Part shown: positions 1 to 16,167 of the stretch, piece after piece
Layout of the letters: every line of letters begins with the position of its first letter
Position numbering within the stretch: position 1 is the first letter of the stretch
Assembly: GCA_963695555.1 (NCBI GenBank)
Contig: CAVOGR010000002.1
Location: forward strand, 32,001 to 96,000
Length of the DNA stretch: 64,000 nucleotides
Source: an uncultured Gemmatimonadales bacterium
GTDB lineage: Bacteria > Gemmatimonadota > Gemmatimonadetes > Gemmatimonadales > GWC2-71-9
Reading direction: 5' to 3'
Position numbers and translations under genes: made by a program
Notes under the pieces: model-generated
The model's database searches: none
Told to the model about the DNA's origin: nothing
The model's input: only the letters and a program-made list of their open reading frames with translations

Positions 1-883
1 CCAGCGACCAGTCGCGCATGTGCTCGATGGCCTCGACCACCGCGCCGGGACGCTCCTCGTGGATGTGATGGCCGGCGCCACCGACCGTGTCGACTTGAAA
101 GGCGTGAAGCGTGCGGTGGAAGAGCGCGATCTCGCCGGCGGAGACCCCGCCTTCGTGCGGTGCCGTTCCCCTGAGCAGGAAGACGGGAGCCGGGATATCA
201 GCCAGATGATCCCGGAGGCGCTCCGGCTCGCGGGCCTTCCCCATCTGGATGTAGGCCAGGAGGGTTCCGTCCAGGTCGGCCGCGGTGCCGGCGGTGTAGC
301 CGGCGACCACCTCGTCGGTCACCCAGCTCGGATCGCCCGACGTTTCGATGAAGCCCTTCCGCATTTCCTTTCGGACGCGCTTGACGCCGCCGGCCCACTT
401 GATGAACGACACGAACCGAAGCGCCTTCTTGAAACCGGGTGTGGCGGCTTCCTCGGCGGGGCCGCCCTCGATTGAGAGCAGCGCTCCCACCGCGCTGGGC
501 CGGCGATACGCCAGGCGCAGTGCGATCGATGCGCCGAGCGAGTGGGCAACGACCAACGCGTCGGAGATACCGAGCGTGTCGAGCACTGCGGCGACGCGAT
601 CGGCCTGGGCGGTGAGGGAGTAGTCGGCCTTCTCGGGGCGCGACGAGTGACCGAAGCCGAGCGGCTCGATGACGATCGCCTGATACTCGTCCGATGGAAG
701 GAGCGCGATCACTTTGCGAAAGGCGTAGGCCGAGCCGGCCAGCCCCGGTATGAACACGACCGGCCGACCATGGCCCACCACCATGACATGGAGCGACTCG
801 GCCCGGGCGACGGTGACGTACCTACTCAGGGCGGAGTCGGGCGACGCCGAGGCACTGAGAGCGAGCATGAGGGCGAGCCACAT
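1..883 (-). CDS. Alpha/beta-fold hydrolase, 3' end runs off the window (not in the ORF track)
   Basis: Hand translation: MWLALMLALSASA...VVFIPGLAGS...VIEPLGFGHS...VVAHSLGASIAL (nucleophile elbow)...GAGHHIHEERP. GGAGGA SD at 891-896; frame open to base 2. Confidence 0.88.
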   Translation of the reverse strand, partial: MWLALMLALSASASPDSALSRYVTVARAESLHVMVVGHGRPVVFIPGLAGSAYAFRKVIALLPSDEYQAIVIEPLGFGHSSRPEKADYSLTAQADRVAAVLDTLGISDALVVAHSLGASIALRLAYRRPSAVGALLSIEGGPAEEAATPGFKKALRFVSFIKWAGGVKRVRKEMRKGFIETSGDPSWVTDEVVAGYTAGTAADLDGTLLAYIQMGKAREPERLRDHLADIPAPVFLLRGTAPHEGGVSAGEIALFHRTLHAFQVDTVGGAGHHIHEERPGAVVEAIEHMRDWSL

Positions 884-912
884 GACGTGATCCTCCGTGA
901 GGGTCCACCGCC

Positions 913-945
913 ACGTTCGCCGCGCGGGGTCAAGTCACGATCAAG
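913..945 (-). promoter_or_regulatory. Putative SARP-activated promoter of the hydrolase gene
   Basis: Minus strand TTGATCG-N4-TTGACCC-N8-GAACGT, same geometry as at 2278-2310 and 7706-7738. Confidence 0.65.
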
Positions 946-1007
946 CCGCGCGAGGCTCGGTGTCCCCGCGCGGCTTGGTTACGCCGTCTCCGAGTGTGGT
1001 CACTTCA

Positions 1008-2219
1008 CTACGGCGTGCATTGCACCTCCATGTCGTACCCGGTGGACGACCCCGGCCCGACCTTGAGCACCACCTTCATTCTGCCGCGGAATGGGCCCGA
1101 CGGCGGCACCTCGATCTGCAGCACCACGCTCGACACCGAGGACAGGTGGTCGTTCAGGCGGGCATGGTCGTTCTGGTTGATCACGGCCGTGTACGTCTCT
1201 GCCAGCGGCGTCGGTGGGCTGGTGCTGGGATCCACCGGCGTCAGGTCGAGCTGCCCGTGGGCGCGGAACATGGTCAGGTAGTTCCCGCCTTGGGTCACGA
1301 TGGTCCGTTGGGTAAGTTCGATCGGACCGGTCACATACAGGTACTGGAACGCGTCACCCGAGCAGAACGGCTTCGGAATCACCTGATCGAACTGGATGGT
1401 GTATTCCTGGGTCGTGACGCCGGGCGTCGGCGTGCTTTGGCCGGTCACGAATAGGACGGTGGCCTGCCCATCGGTCAGGATCGGCACGGGATCGGTGGTA
1501 CTCGGCGGGCCACCGACCAGCGCCTTCAGCTCGTCCGGCAATCCGTTGTAAATCATGGCCGGAATCTCACGCCACGGCGCCGGGTTGATGGGCGGCGTCA
1601 ACGTGAGCGGCCCACCCGGATCGAGCAGGCCCGACCGCAGAAAGTCGATGACCACCAGCTGCTCGGCCAACTCCCAGTGGATGACCTGGTGCTCGTGTGT
1701 GCCGGGAATCAGCAGTTCGAAGTGCGCGTTCGCGACCGTGATGCTCCCCATGTCGAACAACCGAACGTGGAATCGCAGTGGATCATAGGCACCGCACTCG
1801 AGCTGTACCGCGCTGCCTTCCCACCCATGCGGCTCGGCGTAGGCGCCCTGCATCGTGCCGCCCAAGGCATCGGTCCAAGTGCAGTTGAATGGGAACGCGT
1901 CCGGAAGACCGAACATGGTCCGGTTCCCGTCGAGTCCCATCAGGGCCGAACGCAGTTGCTGTGGATTCGCCTGGCCGCTGAAGATCAGGTTCACCGGGTC
2001 GTCCGGCGTCGCGAGGTTCGAGCTGGTGAACGGCCAGAAGGTGAGCGACTCTCCGCCCACGTCGACCGTCACCAGCGGCGCAGGCGCCTGCGCATCGTTG
2101 GTTTTCGCCGAGAGTTCGGACACGGGGCCGACCGGATCCGACCCATCGTTGCAGCCAACGATGAGGACCAGGGAAAGTGCGGCTGCGACAATGCCCCCAG
2201 TCATGCGGCATGACAACAT
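1008..2219 (-). CDS. Hypothetical lipoprotein (403 aa)
   Basis: Long ORF, AGGAGG SD, hydrophobic signal ending in lipobox-like LIVG-C; no family recognised. Confidence 0.8.
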   Translation of the reverse strand: MLSCRMTGGIVAAALSLVLIVGCNDGSDPVGPVSELSAKTNDAQAPAPLVTVDVGGESLTFWPFTSSNLATPDDPVNLIFSGQANPQQLRSALMGLDGNRTMFGLPDAFPFNCTWTDALGGTMQGAYAEPHGWEGSAVQLECGAYDPLRFHVRLFDMGSITVANAHFELLIPGTHEHQVIHWELAEQLVVIDFLRSGLLDPGGPLTLTPPINPAPWREIPAMIYNGLPDELKALVGGPPSTTDPVPILTDGQATVLFVTGQSTPTPGVTTQEYTIQFDQVIPKPFCSGDAFQYLYVTGPIELTQRTIVTQGGNYLTMFRAHGQLDLTPVDPSTSPPTPLAETYTAVINQNDHARLNDHLSSVSSVVLQIEVPPSGPFRGRMKVVLKVGPGSSTGYDMEVQCTP

Positions 2220-2277
2220 GATGACCTCCTGGTGAGGGAAGAGCCTCGATCTCTCTCTAGGAGGCCGAGGCTCTGGG

Positions 2278-2310
2278 ATGCTAGGACCAGGGGGTCAAGC
2301 GGGGGTCAAG
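2278..2310 (-). promoter_or_regulatory. Putative SARP-activated promoter of the 403-aa lipoprotein gene
   Basis: Minus strand TTGACCC-N4-TTGACCC-N8-TAGCAT. Confidence 0.7.
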
Positions 2311-2382
2311 CGGGGGGCTATTGGCTATTGGCTGAATAAGGGAGTAGGGAGTGGGGAGTAGGGAGTAGGATTTTGTGCTCGA

Positions 2383-2585
2383 TATCATCCCGAGCGTAGC
2401 GAGGGATTTCCTCAGCCGTTCTTCTCGCCCTCCGGCCGCGAGTCCGCGGCTTAAGCCGCGGCTCCGCTACTGTCGCTAAAGCGACGTACTGCTTTCTTCC
2501 TCCCAACTTTCCGTCTTTCCGCCTTGTCGCCTTCCCGGCATGCGTTAAAGAGATCCCTCGGGCGCTTCGCACCCTCGGGATGACA
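2383..2585. repeat. Bipartite palindromic REP/MITE-like element, copy 1 (longer interior)
   Basis: Left arm TCATCCCGAGCGTAGCGAGGGAT, right arm GAGATCCCTCGGGCGCTTCGCACCCTCGGGATGACA; internal palindrome CCGCGGCTTAAGCCGCGG at 2444-2461. Confidence 0.85.
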
Positions 2586-2604
2586 CTCCGGGGTAACCCG
2601 GCCC

Positions 2605-2657
2605 TCCTTACTCCTTACTCCTTACTCCTTACTCCCTACTCCTTACTCCTCACTCCC
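2605..2657. repeat. Heptamer tandem repeat (TACTCCT/TACTCCC)n overlapping the SARP gene stop
   Basis: About 7 tandem units visible directly. Confidence 0.9.
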
Positions 2658-4564
2658 TTCACAGCATCCATCACCCGCTCCCGCCCTCCCGCCGTAATCA
2701 TGTCGCGAGCCACCACCTCACGCATGATCCGGGCGACGAACACGTAGCCGCGCGATTCGAAGCTGAGCCAGCGCTGCCACTCGAGCTGATCGAGTGCCGC
2801 GTTTACCTGCTCCTCGGGGAAGCCGGTGGCGGTGGCCAGCATTTCGGGCGACGGGCGCTCGTCGAGGATAGCGGCTGCGGCCAAGACCTGCTGCGCGTCC
2901 GCACTCAGGCGATTGAAGCCGATTCGGATCGCGGCGACGATGGTGTCGGGCAGGCCGCCGGGTGCGGTCTCGGACAGAGTGTGAAGCGGCGCGGGCCAGG
3001 CACCGGCCTGGGAATCGAGATCGAACCCGGAGGCGATGGCGTGGAGCAGCTCGACCGCGAGGAGCGGGTAGCCCGCGGAGTCGGCCACTAGGCGGCGCGC
3101 GAGGCGCGCGGTTTCCTGCTCGGCGTAACTCGGGATGGCCCAGTGTGCCAGTTGCGCGAGTGCTTTCTCCGAAAGCGCGCCGAGGGTGAGGCACACGCCC
3201 GGCACGTCGCGCCCGAGTCGGGAGCGGAGGTCGTCCAGCTCGTCACGGCCCTCACGGGTATTCGCGGTCAGGATGAGAAGCAGCGGCGTCGCGGCCAGGT
3301 CACGCAGCAAGGCAAGTACGGCGGAGAAGCTATCGTGATCCAGCCAGTGGGCGTTGTCGATCATGACCACGACCGGTTGTTCCACGAGCGCCGCCTGGAA
3401 CACTTCGCCAATGGCCTGCCCGACCGGCTCGGGCGCGATGCCCTTCACCGCCTGGGCGTACTGGTCCTGCCACTCAGCGAGGTGCTGGGTGAAGCTCGCC
3501 AACGCGGCCGGCGGCGAGCCCGCGACACCCGCGATGTCGAGCAACCCGCCGCGCGCCAGACCGTACACACCGCTCCACTCGCGCGACCGATCGGCCTCGA
3601 CCGCCCGCAGTGCCACCACGGCGGCACCATCCAGCCGCGCTCGATCGAGCAGCTCGTCGGCCAGCCTGGTCTTCCCGGTGCCCGAGTCCCCCAGAATCAC
3701 CACGGCATGTGCCTCGCCGCGTGCGGCACATGCGTCCCAAGCCCCGACGATCGATCCCAACTCCTGTTCCCGTCCCACGAGCGGCGCGCGGCGGCTCTCA
3801 GCCAGATTCTTCGCCGCGTCGGACCGCGTGGCCGACGATGCGAGACCCAGCGACCGATCCTGCCGAATCCGTTCGGCGAGCTGAGCGGTGGCCTGTTCGG
3901 GCTTGGACTCGAGTTCCTGCACCAGCCGGTTGGCCAACGCGTCGTAGCGCTCCAACGCGGTTGCCCGATTGCCCGACAGCGAGAGACAGCGCATCACCGC
4001 CCGAAGCGCCGTCTCCGACCACGGGTCGAGCACAGTGGCCCGCTCGGCGCGCTGAGTCGCGTCGCTCACGTGACCGCCAGCCAAGAGTTCGTCGGTGTAC
4101 TCCGCCAAGACCTCGACGCCGCGGCGGCGCCAGGTGCCACGTTCCGCCGTGAGCCAGTCTTCGAATTCGGACGCGTCGTCAATTCCGAATCCTTCGAGGA
4201 AATTCCCGCCGACCATGTCGCCCGCACGCACAGTGTCACCCGCTGCTGCAGCTTGCTCGAATTGATCGACATCGAGCTCGACCGCATCGTCCGCCAACTC
4301 GACCGTATCACTCTCGGTCGTGATGTTCTTCTCGCCGATGATCTGACGCAGCGCGCGCAGCGCTTCGTTCAATGAGTGGCGTGCGGCCTTCTCGTCCTTA
4401 TCGGCCCAGAGCAGACCGATCAGGTGCTGGCGGCTCCGCCGGCGATGCGGCGAACGGGCCAGGTAGATGAGCAACGCCAGGTTCTTCCGCCACAGGAGCT
4501 CGGCGGGGGCCGGCTGGCCGTCGACCCGCACCTCGACCGGGCCCAGCGTCCGGCAGGTGATCAT
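2636..4564 (-). CDS. SARP-family transcriptional activator (wHTH + BTAD + AAA/NB ATPase), AfsR-like
   Basis: ITCRTLGPVEV...LLIYLA...LLWAD...SLNEALRALR...LDVDQFE...FLEGF...FEDWLTAER...DPWSE (BTAD); Walker A GDSGTGKT, Walker B VMIDNAHW. ATG at 4564 overlaps the kinase stop (ATGA). Confidence 0.88.
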   Translation of the reverse strand: MITCRTLGPVEVRVDGQPAPAELLWRKNLALLIYLARSPHRRRSRQHLIGLLWADKDEKAARHSLNEALRALRQIIGEKNITTESDTVELADDAVELDVDQFEQAAAAGDTVRAGDMVGGNFLEGFGIDDASEFEDWLTAERGTWRRRGVEVLAEYTDELLAGGHVSDATQRAERATVLDPWSETALRAVMRCLSLSGNRATALERYDALANRLVQELESKPEQATAQLAERIRQDRSLGLASSATRSDAAKNLAESRRAPLVGREQELGSIVGAWDACAARGEAHAVVILGDSGTGKTRLADELLDRARLDGAAVVALRAVEADRSREWSGVYGLARGGLLDIAGVAGSPPAALASFTQHLAEWQDQYAQAVKGIAPEPVGQAIGEVFQAALVEQPVVVMIDNAHWLDHDSFSAVLALLRDLAATPLLLILTANTREGRDELDDLRSRLGRDVPGVCLTLGALSEKALAQLAHWAIPSYAEQETARLARRLVADSAGYPLLAVELLHAIASGFDLDSQAGAWPAPLHTLSETAPGGLPDTIVAAIRIGFNRLSADAQQVLAAAAILDERPSPEMLATATGFPEEQVNAALDQLEWQRWLSFESRGYVFVARIMREVVARDMITAGGRERVMDAVKGVRSKE

Positions 4565-7371
4565 GTGGGACACTCCCGAGCAAGCTCCGCCGCATGGTCG
4601 CGGAGCGGCGCCACCTGGGGCTCCGGGTTGGTCCAGATCTCGAGTAGGCGCCGCACCATTTGGCAGGCCCGCTCCCCGTTTCCCAGTTGACGCAGCACCC
4701 GGCTCCGGTCGAGCCGCGCGTAGGTGCCGACCGCCCAGTCGATTTCGGCCGCTTGCGCCTCACCCGCGAGCCATCCGGCGAAGTCCGAGTTTTCGTACCA
4801 GAGCCACTCCTTTTCCGCCTCCTCGAGTCGACCGACCTGTTCGTACCAGAGGGCACGATGGCGATGGAGCACGGCGCGGGCGAACGGATCGGCCATTCGG
4901 TCGGCGGAATCGGAGGCGAACAGTGGTTGCGACAATTCCAGAGCACCCGCGTGATCTCCCGTCAACGCGTGACGCATGGCTTCCAGGAAGGTGACCAGTC
5001 GCAGTGATGCCGCGTTCCGACCAGCATGCTGTCCGGCTCGGGCGTGCCAGGCGCCGAGCCTCGCCGCATCGTTCCTGGTGTATGCGTCGATTCCCAGTGC
5101 CCATGCCGCCCGGACGCCGCGATGCCCATCCAAGGCCAGCGCTTCCAGTACTTGGCGACCTTTGACCGCCTCCACTTCAGGTAGGGTGCCGGCGCCGAGC
5201 GCCAGCAGCAGCACGCGCCACTCATGAGCTTGGAGGCGGGCCTCGTCGGTGGGCGACAGGCTGAGCGCGGAATCGAGATGCGCGAGGCCGGCGCCAGGAC
5301 GTCCCAGGGCGATCGACGCCAGCCCCTGGCCGGTATGACCACTGGCGTGTTGAAGCGGCGGGGCACCGGGAACATCGGCCAACCACTTCCCGAGCTGGAG
5401 TTGGGCGTTCGGGATATCGAACGACAGTCCCATGCGCACGACCCGTGATACATCGGCAACGAAACTCGTTTCAGAATTTGCCAGGAGCGTTGGCTCCAGG
5501 GCCGCTGCCGAGTCGGGAGCAAAGCGGTAGAGATAGGCGAGCCCCAGCTGTCGCCCGACGTCGAGCTCTCCGCCCGGCTGCGTGCCGATCGAGTCACGTT
5601 GCGCCACGACCCGCGCGGCTTCGTCCCGGCGGCCGAGGCGGATGTACGCCCATGCAACCTGATTGAGCACCGGCCCGAAGCGCGGATTCAATGCTCGCGC
5701 CGCTTCCATCGTGTTGAGGGCGTGTTCCAGCTGCAATCCCGAGAGCGGGCCGCGATGAAACAGCTCGTTCCCGTACACGAACTTGGCGTAGAAGTCGTGC
5801 GGATAGAGCGAGTCGGCCCGGGCGTAGATTGCCCTCCGTCGCGCCAGATCGGGCTCCAACTGGGCCGTGATCAGGAGCGTGTCCAGGGGGCCAAAGTCGG
5901 CTTTGTGCGCCGTGTACACCTGGGCCAAGTCGATGTCGGTTGGGATCCGCTGCCACCGCCGCGTGTCGGCCAGGCGCCAGGCGGCCTGGGCGAAGGTCGA
6001 ATCGATGGCCAGCGCTGCCTCGAAGTGATTCCCTGCCACCGCCCACGCATCGCGTCCGAAGGCAATCTGCCCATTGAGGAATTGGCTGATGGCCCGGAAG
6101 TCCTTGGTCGCAAGGCTCGGGATCTCACGATACAACGACACCCAGAGAGGAAAGACCCGCCGCACCAGGTCCAATCCAATCGAGTCCGGGAGCACAGCCC
6201 ACGCGGTTTCCTTGGCGCGGTGCGGCGGCAGCATGGTGCGATTGCCGTCGACATCGAGGACGTACATCTCGACCACCAGCTCGTCGCCCTGGCGGATGAG
6301 TTGCCCTTCGGTTCGGTTGCGTGCCCGGGTCGAGTCACGCTGGGCCAACTCGATTTGCGGCAGGCCCCGGAGCTTGAAGTGGAGCGCCTCAGCGAACTCC
6401 AGCCCAAGGTTCGGGTCGACGCCTCCAGCAACGGCCAGCGGTGGAATCGCGAGATCCGGCAACGCGGCGGCCGGAGCGCCACCACAGCGCGGCCACCATT
6501 GGAATAGCCGGCAGAGTGGCGCCGGAGGAACCAACAGGAGCAACGCGGCGACCGCGATCAGGGCCAGCACTCCGGCGGGCCGAAGGATCGAGCGGTGCCG
6601 GATCCGGTCGAGCGCCTTCCGGAATTCAATCGCGTCGGCCCAGCGGCTATCGGGTGACCGCGCGAGCGCGCGTTTGAGCAACGTGGCGACGCGGAGCGGA
6701 ACGCCTCGCCAATCGGCATCGGCCGCGGGGACGTCTCGATTCCATCGCCGGCCGGAGCAGGCCTCGTAGAGCACCATGCCCAGCGAGTAGAGATCGCTCC
6801 GGGGCGACACCTCGCCGGTCGATTGTTCCGGCGCCATGTAGGCCGGGGTGCCCACAAAATGACCCGCTTTGGTCAGCGTGGTATCGCTCGACGTGCGGGC
6901 GATGCCGAAATCGCCGAGCAAGGCGCGGTCCTTCATCAGGAAGATGTTGGCGGGCTTGACGTCGCGGTGCACCGTGCCGAGTTGATGGACCGCCTCGAGC
7001 GCACTCAGGAGCTGGACACCGAGCGACGCGACATCGGGAACCGACAACGGACCGCGCTCGAGCCTCGCGGCGAGCGACTCGCCCTCGATCAGGTCCATCA
7101 CGTAATAGTGGAGACCCGCCACTACGCCGGCTTGATGGATGGCGATGATATTGGGGTGGCTCAGGGTGGCGAGGAGCCGGGCCTCGCGGAGAAACCGTTC
7201 CGCGGCCACGGCGGTCGCCATCTCCGGCCGCAGGACCTTGATGGCCACCCGGCGGTCGAGGGTGGGATCATGGGCGACAAATACGATCCCCATTCCCCCG
7301 GATGCGAGTTCGCTTTCGACCTCGTAGTGGGGTCGGAGCGCCACGCGCACCCGTTCCAGCAGCAGGCTCAT
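4561..7371 (-). CDS. Hanks-type Ser/Thr protein kinase with TM helix and C-terminal TPR-like helical region
   Basis: SGGMGIV, VAIK, HRDVKPAN, DFG, GTPAYMAPE, SDLYSLG motifs; hydrophobic GVLALIAVAALLLLV segment. Confidence 0.93.
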   Translation of the reverse strand: MSLLLERVRVALRPHYEVESELASGGMGIVFVAHDPTLDRRVAIKVLRPEMATAVAAERFLREARLLATLSHPNIIAIHQAGVVAGLHYYVMDLIEGESLAARLERGPLSVPDVASLGVQLLSALEAVHQLGTVHRDVKPANIFLMKDRALLGDFGIARTSSDTTLTKAGHFVGTPAYMAPEQSTGEVSPRSDLYSLGMVLYEACSGRRWNRDVPAADADWRGVPLRVATLLKRALARSPDSRWADAIEFRKALDRIRHRSILRPAGVLALIAVAALLLLVPPAPLCRLFQWWPRCGGAPAAALPDLAIPPLAVAGGVDPNLGLEFAEALHFKLRGLPQIELAQRDSTRARNRTEGQLIRQGDELVVEMYVLDVDGNRTMLPPHRAKETAWAVLPDSIGLDLVRRVFPLWVSLYREIPSLATKDFRAISQFLNGQIAFGRDAWAVAGNHFEAALAIDSTFAQAAWRLADTRRWQRIPTDIDLAQVYTAHKADFGPLDTLLITAQLEPDLARRRAIYARADSLYPHDFYAKFVYGNELFHRGPLSGLQLEHALNTMEAARALNPRFGPVLNQVAWAYIRLGRRDEAARVVAQRDSIGTQPGGELDVGRQLGLAYLYRFAPDSAAALEPTLLANSETSFVADVSRVVRMGLSFDIPNAQLQLGKWLADVPGAPPLQHASGHTGQGLASIALGRPGAGLAHLDSALSLSPTDEARLQAHEWRVLLLALGAGTLPEVEAVKGRQVLEALALDGHRGVRAAWALGIDAYTRNDAARLGAWHARAGQHAGRNAASLRLVTFLEAMRHALTGDHAGALELSQPLFASDSADRMADPFARAVLHRHRALWYEQVGRLEEAEKEWLWYENSDFAGWLAGEAQAAEIDWAVGTYARLDRSRVLRQLGNGERACQMVRRLLEIWTNPEPQVAPLRDHAAELARECPT

Positions 7372-7388
7372 TTTTGCGCCTCGCTGGA

Positions 7389-7427
7389 ATGGTGCGGCTT
7401 CCCGGGAAGAAGGTCAAGCGGGAATCA
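7389..7427 (-). promoter_or_regulatory. Putative sigma70 promoter of the kinase-SARP operon
   Basis: TTGACC-N17-CACCAT; a degenerate CTGA copy lies 11 bp upstream of the TTGA. Confidence 0.5.
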
Positions 7428-7483
7428 GCGGTTCGGCGGTTCGGCGGTTCGGCGGTTCGGCGGTTCGGCGGTTCGGCGGTTCG
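7428..7483. repeat. Octamer tandem repeat (GCGGTTCG)x7
   Basis: Seven perfect units; a degenerate relative occurs near 38614-38637. Confidence 0.95.
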
Positions 7484-7517
7484 AAGGTCGCTCACTGCAA
7501 CGTCACGCGCCACATGC

Positions 7518-7636
7518 TGTCATCCCGAGCGCAGCGAGGGATCTCCTCGGCTGCTACACGAACGCGGCCTTGGTCCGCGACTCTCCGGGCATGCGTTCAT
7601 GAGATCCCTCGGGCGCTTCGCACCCTCGGGATGACA
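7518..7636. repeat. Bipartite palindromic REP/MITE-like element, copy 2
   Basis: TGTCATCCCGAGCGCAGCGAGGGATCTC ... GAGATCCCTCGGGCGCTTCGCACCCTCGGGATGACA; terminal inverted repeat TGTCATCCCGAG/CTCGGGATGACA. Confidence 0.9.
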
Positions 7637-7705
7637 ATCCGGAGGTTATCAGCCTCCTCACTCCTCCACTCACCACTCCTTACTCCTTACTCCTCACTCC
7701 TATCC

Positions 7706-7738
7706 CTTGACCCCCCCTTGACCCCCGCCGGCCACCGT
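7706..7738 (+). promoter_or_regulatory. Putative SARP-activated promoter of the small lipoprotein gene
   Basis: TTGACCC-N4-TTGACCC-N8-CACCGT. Confidence 0.7.
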
Positions 7739-7768
7739 TCCCTTGGAACCTGAACCGGGGGAACCACC

Positions 7769-8137
7769 ATGCGTGCCAAACAAATCCTGTCCCTGATCGT
7801 GATGGCCTCGTATCTGGCCGGCTGCACCACCTGGCGGGTTCAGCCCGTCACGCCGAAGCAGCTGGTAGAGACCAAGCGGCCCGCCAAGGTGCGGGTGCTC
7901 ACCACCCAGGATCAGCAGCTGGTGTTCCATCAGCCATTCGTCCGCGACGATTCCCTCATGGGATACGTCGAGGGCGAGGCGACCCGAATCCCGCTCGACC
8001 AGATCGTGCGGGTGGAAAAGCGGCAAACCGACGGGACCAAGACCGCCCTGGTCGGCCTGTGGATTGCGGCACTTGTTGTGGGGGGTGTGATCGTGGTCCA
8101 CAACTCCGACTATATGGGCGGCAGTGCTACCTGGTGA
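7769..8137 (+). CDS. Small hypothetical lipoprotein with C-terminal TM helix
   Basis: Lipobox LAG-C; C-terminal KTALVGLWIAALVVGGVIVV. Confidence 0.8.
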   Translation: MRAKQILSLIVMASYLAGCTTWRVQPVTPKQLVETKRPAKVRVLTTQDQQLVFHQPFVRDDSLMGYVEGEATRIPLDQIVRVEKRQTDGTKTALVGLWIAALVVGGVIVVHNSDYMGGSATW

Positions 8138-8280
8138 AACCAGGGTCAATAGGCACTCGCGTACGGAGGCCGGAGGGATTGTTCCATAACGCGTGGAACC
8201 GGCAGTTGCTCAATCTGCCCGCAGCTCCGGAGGCCCGGCCGGGCAACTGGCCGTCAGTGATATCGCAGGCGGCATGAGCT

Positions 8281-8390
8281 GGGGAGTGAGGAGTAAATAG
8301 TAAGGAGTAAGGAGTAAGTAAGGAAAGCCAGAAATGACTCCCGACTCCCTACTCCCCACTCCCTACTCCCTACTCCTCACTCCTCACTCC
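8281..8390. repeat. Inverted pair of heptamer arrays (GGAGTAA...TACTCCC) between convergent genes
   Basis: Purine-rich array then pyrimidine-rich array, visible directly. Confidence 0.85.
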
Positions 8391-9176
8391 GTCGGCGCCA
8401 CCTCGTCCACATACGACCGATCCACGTAGCCCTCGGTCCGGCCATCGACGATGACGCGGTACCATCCGTCCGCCAGCGAGTCGACCAGCACCCGCTCGCC
8501 GGGGCGGAGGGTACGTACGGTAGCCGCAATACCGCTCCGTCCTTCACGCAGGTTGACCCAGGTCCTGGCATACCGTTCGAGTGGCGTGCCCGCGGGAAGT
8601 GCCGCGGCAGGTGGGGTGACCGAGGGGAGGCTGTCTCGCGCGGCAGCGGCGGGGAACGGCTCTGGCGTGGACGCGACGGCTGGTACGGCGTCACGCCGAA
8701 CCGGTGGCGGGGTTTCGGGAGTGGTGTCGATCGCTTGAACCCGGGGTTGGGTTACCGACCGCGATGGAGTGCTTGGTGCCGTATCGACCCGCCGGGCCGG
8801 CGGCGGCGCGGGCGGCTCGCGCGCGGGAGCCGTCTCGGGTGTCACAACCGCTTGCGTCTCTTGGGCCGGTGCCTGGGTCGCGCTCGCCGAATCGTCGGGG
8901 GTGGGACCGGGCTCGAGCCCCTCGCCACTGGCAGCCGCCGTTACTGGCGCAGTCGCGGCGCTCGAGCGGTCGCGACCCGGTAGGTGCAGTACGATCAGCG
9001 CGCCCACCGCAATCAGGGCGACCACGACCATCAGCACCCGCACCGGCGTGCCCAGCTCCGGGCCCGGAAATGGCCTGCCGACGAATGCCGGGCGTGAAGA
9101 TGAGCCCGCATGCAGGGCATCGGGACGCGGAGCTCTCGGCTCGCTGGCCACAGGACGGACAGTCGAGAAAGGCCAT
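8384..9176 (-). pseudogene. Zn-ribbon + TM + Pro/Ala linker + bacterial SH3 protein, one frameshift near 9060-9090 (possibly an assembly error)
   Basis: MAFLDCPSCG...CPACG is in one frame (ORF 8691-9176). TM and SH3 (YARTWVNLREG...DSLADGWYRV...GYV) are in another (8384-9151). Intact paralogue at 10140-10754. Confidence 0.8.
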
Positions 9177-10139: not shown

Positions 10140-10754
10140 TCACGGCGCCCTCACCACCAGATTCGACCGGTGCGCATAGCCGACCGGTTCCCCGCCGATC
10201 GAGACGCGGTACCAGCCTTGGTCGAGCGAATCGACCAGCACGGCATCACCGGGCTCGAGCACCCGAACGGTGGGGGCGTCCCGACCGCGGTCCCGGCGCA
10301 CGTTGACCCAGGTACTGGCGTAGCGCCGCGACTGTTGGCCGGTGGGAGTGGCGGCGAGCGGCGGTAGAACCGGGGCCGGGGCCGCTACCGCCGGCGTGGT
10401 GTCGGCCACCGGACCCTGTGGCTGACTGTCTTGCCCGATCTGCCCGACGGCTGCCGTATCAGGGAGGGCGGTCTCGACCGGCTGCTGACGCTCGGTCGCA
10501 GGCGGCGGCGCGATCGCCACCCCCGACTCCACACCCGCGCTCGACGAGCCGCGCCAGCTCTGGAACGCCACCACCGCGGCGGCCAGGGCCACCAGGGCCA
10601 GGGCCACAACCAGCGCCGGCCGCACCATCCTGGCCCGGGGCGGCGGGATACTCAGCTTGAGCTGCTGCGGCGGGAACTGGTAACCGCAATGCGGGCATTG
10701 CGTCGCGATGCTCAGCATCGTCTTGCCGCATTCCGGGCAATCCATGTAGGCCAT
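10140..10754 (-). CDS. Zn-ribbon + TM + bacterial SH3 domain protein
   Basis: CPECG...CPHCG, hydrophobic helix, YASTWVNVRRD...DSLDQGWYRV...GYAH. Confidence 0.85.
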   Translation of the reverse strand: MAYMDCPECGKTMLSIATQCPHCGYQFPPQQLKLSIPPPRARMVRPALVVALALVALAAAVVAFQSWRGSSSAGVESGVAIAPPPATERQQPVETALPDTAAVGQIGQDSQPQGPVADTTPAVAAPAPVLPPLAATPTGQQSRRYASTWVNVRRDRGRDAPTVRVLEPGDAVLVDSLDQGWYRVSIGGEPVGYAHRSNLVVRAP

Positions 10755-15988: not shown

Positions 15989-16109
15989 CGTCATCCCGAG
16001 CGAAGCGAGGGATCTCTTCAACGGTTTCCCGGTCGCAGTCTAGGCCTAAGCGATCTTCCGGATATGCGTCAATGAGATCCCTCGGGCGCTGCGCACCCTC
16101 GGGATGACA
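15989..16109. repeat. Bipartite palindromic REP/MITE-like element, copy 3
   Basis: GTCATCCCGAGCGAAGCGAGGGATCTC ... GAGATCCCTCGGGCGCTGCGCACCCTCGGGATGACA. Confidence 0.9.
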
Positions 16110-16167
16110 GCTCCGAGCTTACCGACTACTCCTTACCCCTTACCCCTTACCCCTTACTCCTCACTCT

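Follow-up and report, generated by a model that had tools for sequence, protein, structure and literature searches.

A conserved kinase-SARP gene pair and a SARP-type promoter box ahead of envelope genes in Gemmatimonadales

Introduction

AfsR of Streptomyces coelicolor (PDB 8HVR, 8K60) and the kinase AfsK form one of the described systems closest to a gene pair found here in an uncultured Gemmatimonadales bacterium. The pair, a membrane Ser/Thr kinase and a regulator of the SARP family, lies in a 64,000-nucleotide stretch of DNA (the window; GenBank assembly GCA_963695555.1, contig CAVOGR010000002.1, positions 32,001 to 96,000 of the forward strand). AfsR (PMC10936776) shares with the window protein a SARP fold and a STAND NTPase, and its promoter shares with those of the window two 11-bp repeats with a TT-x-A core located 8 bp before a weak -10 element. 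The Walker A threonine (T299 here) likewise matches T337, which is phosphorylated in AfsR. The systems differ in that AfsR carries arm and TPR sensor domains as well as an F/Y-HD latch, neither of which is present here. Furthermore, afsK is located two genes from afsR and encodes one of several kinases, whereas here the SARP gene is overlapped by that of an apparently dedicated receptor kinase with a single membrane pass, and the targets are mostly envelope genes.

In Mycobacterium tuberculosis, PknH phosphorylates the SARP EmbR on threonine and thereby activates cell-envelope genes (PMC4601284; PDB 2FEZ). Both systems comprise a Hanks kinase in the membrane with a domain outside the cell (predicted here), a SARP and cell-envelope genes. 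In contrast, EmbR docks via an FHA domain and lacks a STAND module, whereas the window SARP has a STAND module and no FHA match, and the predicted external domain of the window kinase consists, unlike that of PknH, of alpha/beta and TPR parts. By analogy, PknH/EmbR appears closer in logic than AfsK/AfsR. A third group, the medium SARPs (CdaR, CpkO, FdmR1; PMC10972967), resembles the window protein in size (about 600 aa), in the combination of SARP domain and NTPase, and in lacking a C-terminal sensor; these proteins contain NB-ARC and serve antibiotic clusters, whereas here the NTPase scores as AAA_16, a receptor kinase is coupled to the SARP, and the envelope regulon is scattered over the genome. 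Literature searches on Gemmatimonadota, on SARP/BTAD/STAND regulators and on Ser/Thr kinases returned no description of the present system, with subscription papers lying outside their coverage.

Here, we describe the promoter box, the SARP and the kinase of this locus. It is rather probable that they constitute a two-component-like system, in which the receptor kinase phosphorylates a sensor-less SARP that activates about a dozen envelope genes.

Results

Locus organisation

The kinase-SARP operon is accompanied by three promoters of a common design, laid out in window coordinates as follows.

1..883, minus strand: alpha/beta hydrolase, 308 aa, extending past the window edge
913..946, minus strand: promoter box 1 (gcTTGATCG-tgac-TTGACCC, 8 bp, GAACGT), ahead of the alpha/beta hydrolase
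1008..2219, minus strand: predicted lipoprotein, 403 aa, LIVGC lipobox, without Pfam family
2278..2311, minus strand: promoter box 2 (gcTTGACCC-ccgc-TTGACCC, 8 bp, TAGCAT)
2636..4564, minus strand: SARP-STAND protein, 642 aa, with OmpR-type winged helix-turn-helix (wHTH), BTAD, AAA_16 NTPase and winged-helix domain (WHD)
4561..7371, minus strand: Hanks-type Ser/Thr kinase, 936 aa, one transmembrane helix, predicted external domain
7389..7417, minus strand: kinase-SARP operon promoter, likely of ordinary sigma70 type (TTGACC-17-CACCAT)
7705..7738, plus strand: promoter box 3 (ccTTGACCC-cccc-TTGACCC, 8 bp, CACCGT)
7769..8137, plus strand: predicted lipoprotein, 122 aa, YLAGC lipobox, C-terminal hydrophobic helix, without Pfam family

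A paralogue of the small lipoprotein gene on contig C7 carries the same box. ESM Atlas searches with both lipoproteins returned only hypothetical Gemmatimonadota clusters, with a weak RimP-SH3-like lead (0.81) for the small one. Relatives at 47-91% identity carry the label Gemmatimonadales at 11 of 12 loci, the remaining one Gemmatimonadota.

The promoter box

The pattern TTGA-N7-TTGACCC occurs exactly three times in the window (927-944 and 2292-2309 on the minus strand, 7707-7724 on the plus strand), compared to a mean of 0.00 and a maximum of 0 in 100 shuffles of the window. The hexamers GAACGT (918-913), TAGCAT (2283-2278) and CACCGT (7733-7738) are located exactly 8 bp past the second heptamer. 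Each box is oriented in the sense of its downstream gene, with the start codon 29, 58 and 30 nt away for boxes 1, 2 and 3, respectively. A preliminary description of this DNA had pointed out the three boxes, their hexamers and their orientation, all of which are borne out. With a C before each TTGA, the full unit reads cTTGA-N6-cTTGA-N11-xAxxxT.

The geometry, with its 11-bp period and 8 bp to a -10-like hexamer, is that of the SARP/afs box, as the same description had proposed: PMC10936776 reports 11-bp-period repeats in SARP promoters, with the 3' repeat 8 bp from the -10, which is CACTGT at afsS. The box at C2:25243 has this very hexamer. A conserved T at -38/-27, also reported there, places the second repeat 15 nt before the -10, the same distance as found here, assuming a -10 that starts at -12.

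Across the assembly (3.57 Mb, 87% complete), an A..T hexamer is present at the 8-bp spacing in 16 of the 41 TTGA-N7-TTGA repeats, while nine other spacings yield 0-2. One of these 16 loose-pattern matches is located inside a coding region, where it recurs across the family. For CTTGA-N6-CTTGA the hexamer accompanies 12 of 17 repeats (binomial p about 3e-15). The genome thus holds 12 boxes, and the three-promoter regulon proposed initially is too small. A near-miss box (hexamer TAACTC) is found 16 bp left of the window, ahead of an SDR gene.

Neither the three boxed promoters nor the kinase promoter were picked up by a scan for consensus promoters. Among metatranscriptomes, one run contained half of the words and four contained small shares; the four runs examined proved to be contigs with flat cover over genes and intergenic DNA, and are therefore uninformative on start sites or expression.

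An iterative matrix built on the repeats only was abandoned in favour of fixed patterns after drifting into a second box class. In this class, 11 of 36 TTCAY-N6-TTCAY repeats have the A..T hexamer after a 9-bp spacer (p about 6e-9), for example C5:240139 (+), C5:240968 (+), C1:730152 (+) and C12:62521 (-), often before secreted proteins; candidate readers are an OmpR-type regulator and another SARP (the one at C7:138350 or that at C7:272882). In the window, TTGACCC-N4-TTCACCA is located at 8132-8149 on the minus strand, running antisense where the small lipoprotein gene ends. No hexamer stands 8 bp further on, and this repeat is probably not a promoter of the kind that precedes the three window genes.

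Association of the box with the SARP

The distribution of boxes was determined in 250 genomes of the order, 114 of them from the same family. The loose TTGA box occurs in all 114 family genomes (919 sites versus 37 for the reversed-pattern control). In other families, f3 has 71 sites versus 2 in the control, and f2 has 135 versus 88, which is not above control. Within the family, the loose box averages 9.6 copies per genome with this SARP and 5.6 without, too broad a signal to serve as a marker of the SARP.

The base preceding TTGA separates the classes, being C near this SARP class and G or T ((g/t)TTGA) ahead of SARP genes of approximately 1100 aa. With orthologues called at E<=1e-99, a cTTGA box is present in 69 of 71 family genomes with the SARP orthologue and in 9 of 43 without, although this profile overstates its significance: loci from some of these genomes had been inspected before the -1 C was chosen, and related genomes are not independent samples, so that no p-value is claimed. 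TTGA boxes without the C are equally common with and without this SARP (4.8 versus 5.1 per genome) and likely belong to paralogues. Where a genus contains both states, cTTGA boxes are more numerous in the presence of the orthologue in 11 of 12 cases; the twelfth is due to G145, in which the orthologue gene is in pieces. Counting against the assignment, as does the choice of the -1 base, are three genomes that have boxes while no orthologue was found with the queries used (G107 with 5 boxes, G163 with 2, G006 with 3), and two that have the orthologue without a strict box (G195, G219). Overall, the phylogenetic profile upholds the initial assignment of the boxes to this SARP, and a model in which the SARP reads the cTTGA box is strongly supported by these genome comparisons.

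Other SARP classes show boxes of the same geometry. Of 10 loci from the class with an ASLRQ helix (about 750 aa), 8 carry TTCACG boxes. A code depending on a single recognition-helix residue (E67 reading TTGA, Thr reading TTCA) was considered and rejected, as Thr-type 1100-aa SARPs also have TTGA boxes. At loci of the 750-aa class (L127:5925 -, L122:5924 -, L129:3731 +), divergent TTCACG boxes precede related peptides of 50-56 aa, and these are possibly peptide-precursor loci; the class (helix ASLRQAL, latch His retained) has a kinase gene nearby on the opposite strand. The 1100-aa SARP-STAND-TPR genes have a (g/t)TTGA box close upstream of themselves or of a neighbour (C7:577993 + (L148), L126, L133, L159, L171, L172, L184), which suggests that this class of approximately 1100 aa autoregulates. 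A 700-aa sister class (L107, L110, L113, L115, L116, L141) is accompanied by TTGC/TTGT boxes before lipoprotein genes. What separates paralogous SARPs appears to be a difference of one or two bases (cTTGA, gTTGA, TTCACG, TTGC/TTGT).

Genes downstream of the box

The genes behind the 12 cTTGA boxes, mostly secreted or envelope genes, include the three window genes, the small-lipoprotein paralogue, a short predicted lipoprotein and four related secreted proteins with glycine-rich helices, one of which has a weak glycine-zipper match. Boxes also precede an unknown gene that is followed by a PEMT-PAP2-LGT fusion, and a PPTase that comes first in a small biosynthetic cluster; one box is too close to a contig end for a target to be assigned. 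The biosynthetic cluster (L143:3447-12244; contig C2, 7-16 kb left of the window) comprises the PPTase, an SDR, an ACP/B12-binding protein, a HAD-like phosphatase with B12 radical SAM, a methyltransferase and a carbamoyltransferase. The near-miss box left of the window precedes SDR, PAP2_3, SDR and CPBP genes.

In 112 related loci searched with a slightly looser pattern, a gene led by a Shine-Dalgarno sequence starts less than 200 nt from 67 of 73 boxes, 38 of them at 20-32 nt. Homologues recurring behind the box are the 403-aa lipoprotein (9), the small lipoprotein (8), the SDR (7), an EEP-family lipoprotein (7) and the hydrolase (4), and the orthologous hydrolase gene is preceded by a box in L002, L004, L005, L055 and L102. 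Boxes stay with homologous target genes across rearranged loci at about 50% SARP identity. Lipoproteins and a hydrolase had been expected as targets in place of an antibiotic cluster; this is borne out, with the qualification that the regulon extends genome-wide and one box does precede a small biosynthetic cluster. From its targets (lipoproteins, glycine-zipper secreted proteins, SDR, PAP2, hydrolase and CPBP protease), we infer that the output is envelope and membrane-lipid remodelling.

The SARP lacks a sensor and the latch His

In Pfam, the SARP matches BTAD above the cut-off (E 1e-15) and Trans_reg_C below it (E 9e-5). Its profile matches EmbR and AfsR, EmbR being the best single-sequence match in the PDB, and Foldseek matched the SARP model (pLDDT 87.6) to the AfsR SARP domain (TM 0.72 on target). 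The NTPase has a STAND-like fold with Apaf-1 as top match; Walker A (292-299) and Walker B (D403-N404) are followed through by the helical and winged-helix domains of STAND proteins. Pfam assigns this NTPase to AAA_16 (E 6e-19), and NB-ARC gave no match at E<=0.01. No FHA domain was found in the Pfam scan, and the EmbR alignment stops before the FHA domain of EmbR.

The recognition helix reads SLNEALR. Of the base-contacting AfsR residues, T88 corresponds to E67 and R92 to A71 (mostly V in relatives), which fits the need for a different box core.

The protein terminates at residue 642, directly after the WHD and without a C-terminal sensor, and although the search admitted proteins of up to 1124 aa, none of the best 120 relatives exceeds 690 aa. 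The His/Asp motif of AfsR is described as an ADP latch whose removal is autoactivating (bioRxiv 10.64898/2026.09.02.748808). At the latch position, equated by alignment and not by structural superposition on AfsR, the window protein has F-V-A, with Ala611 present in 120/120 relatives; sister classes have F/C-x-H in the same column, and the 750-aa class has His at the 611 column in 10/10. A loop at residues 523-536, modelled with low confidence, contains a conserved W523 together with T529 (120/120) and S/T533 (120/120). This conserved flexible Thr loop looks like a phosphorylation switch, judging from its conservation pattern.

Lacking a TPR sensor and an HD latch, and having an AAA_16 NTPase, the protein is a member of the SARP family and not an AfsR-class large SARP. 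Of the AfsK/AfsR-like system outside Actinobacteria envisaged in the preliminary description, the conserved kinase-SARP pair is retained and the AfsR class is not.

The kinase and its pairing with the SARP

The kinase has a transmembrane helix at about 268-286 with basic residues on the kinase side. VAIK, HRDxKPxN, DFG and APE are intact, as in nearly all of 37 paired kinases, which likewise have a single transmembrane helix with basic residues before it. It scores 98.9 against the NCBIfam AfsK profile, for which the cut-off is 1300. The C-terminal domain is modelled as an alpha/beta domain and a TPR superhelix (pLDDT 89) with conserved cysteines; both fold and cysteines are consistent with its predicted external position. 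A fold search with this domain returned generic TPR superhelices only, and hence no ligand can be named.

The kinase stop and the SARP start share ATGA at 4564-4561, a 4-bp overlap that is conserved among orthologues and fits the translational coupling initially noted. Pairing was followed in 100 fetched stretches (60 orthologue loci across genera and 40 weaker matches) and 12 further loci, three duplicates being removed. For SARPs of 600-660 aa, an upstream kinase abuts in 40/72 loci, almost all with the same overlap, and lies within 1.5 kb in 52/72; for longer SARPs the corresponding values are 0/33 and 1/33. The exact 4-bp overlap is maintained over two families and many genera. In a sample of the phylum, the SARP is found in 69 of 201 genomes, restricted to families f1, f3, f5 and f6.

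Among family genomes, 54 of the 56 with this kinase lineage also have the SARP. In a quick tree that contains 34 further kinases from this genome, 33 of them are split from the paired kinases (SH-aLRT 97), with one long-branch join. By context, the kinase is the dedicated partner lineage of this SARP. A Mantel correlation between the trees of the two proteins (rho 0.51, compared to at most 0.44 after shuffling) was discarded as evidence of co-evolution, since shared ancestry alone gives this result.

The SARP gene at C7:138350-141310 on the plus strand (L153), 986 codons long, also encodes a fused TPR region with weak similarity to the kinase external domain (28% over 185 aa, E 9e-8). This fusion is a possible one-component counterpart of the kinase-SARP pair.

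The kinase promoter

The likely promoter ahead of the kinase consists of TTGACC, a 17-bp spacer and CACCAT (7417-7389), with no hexamer at the activator position. Among 36 paired kinases, 17 have a similar -35/-10 layout upstream and 2 a direct repeat, and no activator box precedes any of them. What had been taken for a degenerate box at the kinase -35 is thus likely an ordinary sigma70-type promoter whose upstream repeat is not conserved, and the autoregulation proposed from it is not supported.

Other features around the operon

Outside the window, the hydrolase is followed by an SDR/epimerase, PAP2_3, a second SDR and an Rce1-like CPBP protease. REP-like palindrome pairs flank the kinase-SARP operon on both sides (window 2383-2585, 7518-7636 and about 15989-16110). 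One 36-mer is identical at 2550 and 7601, each palindrome has 17-20 genome copies, and low-complexity heptamer runs (ctccttA, ggcggtt) adjoin them. Further along, at 8384-9151 and 10140-10754 on the minus strand, two similar proline-rich single-pass proteins have a C-terminal SH3_3; one has a zinc ribbon, and a DUF1707/LiaF-like gene lies between the pair.

Discussion

We propose that an outside signal would be perceived by the predicted external TPR domain of the kinase, which would then phosphorylate the sensor-less SARP on threonine, in place of the lost sensor; the SARP would bind the cTTGA repeats and switch on about a dozen envelope genes, much as AfsR activates afsS. The steps of this proposal differ in strength. 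By analogy with AfsR, two protomers side by side on the repeats very probably replace the -35 and recruit sigma70-RNA polymerase to the weak -10. Gene context makes it likely that the kinase controls the SARP, and the kinase-to-SARP link is moderately supported. Whether such control is exerted by phosphorylation, replacing the lost sensor and ADP-latch His, seems about evenly balanced; T529/T533 would be the best candidate sites, followed by the Walker A T299. The candidate phosphosite and the sign (on or off) of control are weakly supported.

Several observations weigh against this proposal. Walker B is DN in this protein as opposed to DD in 109/120 relatives, with Asn in 5/120. No kinase is found within 1.5 kb in 20/72 SARP loci, and one subgroup has another kinase as neighbour, which lacks a transmembrane helix after its catalytic domain. 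The kinase lineage (E<=1e-60) is missing from 17/71 SARP genomes, a reverse share of 54/71, although misses are possible, the scoring having covered only four candidates in each genome. In the 700-aa sister class, T529 is retained and the latch His lost (13/13) although a kinase seldom adjoins, and the threonine may therefore be structural. Finally, phosphorylation barely activates AfsR in vitro and counteracts ATP (PMC10936776), which renders the AfsK analogy loose.

The last three points also favour the most substantial alternative, in which the SARP reads the boxes without being a kinase substrate. It would then be constitutive or gated by nucleotide or sequestration, with the kinase only co-transcribed or directed to other targets. 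The autoactivation of AfsR upon latch loss, described in the bioRxiv report, points the same way. We nevertheless consider this alternative rather unlikely: the exact overlap is preserved in many genera from two families, the kinase lineage is nearly always accompanied by the SARP (54/56), and where the lineage is missing another kinase is often upstream, as the 52/72 loci with a kinase within 1.5 kb illustrate.

It is improbable that the boxes belong to a shared SARP language, read by a paralogue (e.g. the 1113-aa SARP-STAND-TPR protein on contig C7) or by several SARPs with the local one as one contributor. Such a language would account for loose TTGA boxes in 114/114 family genomes, including orthologue-less ones, for the TTGA boxes ahead of the approximately 1100-aa class genes, and for the few genomes with cTTGA boxes in which no orthologue was detected. 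The boxes of the 1100-aa genes, however, have G or T and not C at -1, and 34 of the 43 orthologue-less genomes are without a cTTGA box but retain TTGA boxes of other kinds.

OmpR-family proteins likewise recognise direct repeats with an 11-bp period close to the -35. The SARP wHTH profile weakly matches PhoB and ToxR, and the genome has an OmpR-like gene, all of which would suit an OmpR/PhoB-type response regulator, or else an alternative sigma factor, as the reader of the boxes instead of the SARP. This is very improbable in view of box presence tracking the SARP within genera, boxes clustering beside SARP genes, box sequence varying with SARP class, and an 8-bp spacer equal to that published for SARPs (PMC10936776). 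That the repeats are chance or ordinary -35 elements, to which the likeness of TTGAC to a sigma70 -35 and the recurring coding-region match might point, is rejected by a hexamer spacing of 9 or 20 bp instead of 17, by its single position in 12/17 repeats and by the 919 family matches against 37 in the control.

A bolder version of the kinase-to-SARP proposal is a lineage-wide split STAND receptor, in which an NLR-like factor has had its sensor moved outside onto a dedicated kinase, the latch His discarded and an invariant phospho-Thr loop adopted as the switch. This we advance tentatively, considering it somewhat less likely than its opposite. If true, it would represent a third STAND gating mode and a one-kinase-one-regulator Ser/Thr two-component system, running a Gemmatimonadales envelope-stress regulon.

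Gemmatimonadales genomes contain dozens of Ser/Thr kinases (45 matches in this genome), and no paper in the literature searched, subscription papers being outside its coverage, ties one of them to a substrate or regulon. The kinase-SARP pair offers a complete, testable route that leads from a predicted external sensor to identified promoters. It is relevant, too, to a question raised in the AfsR field, the effect of phosphorylation on a SARP-STAND protein, as here TPR sensor and HD latch are naturally gone, and their loss leaves a two-residue candidate switch. The boxes, readable from sequence, provide a natural specificity series and a route to assign unknown lipoproteins to an envelope regulon.

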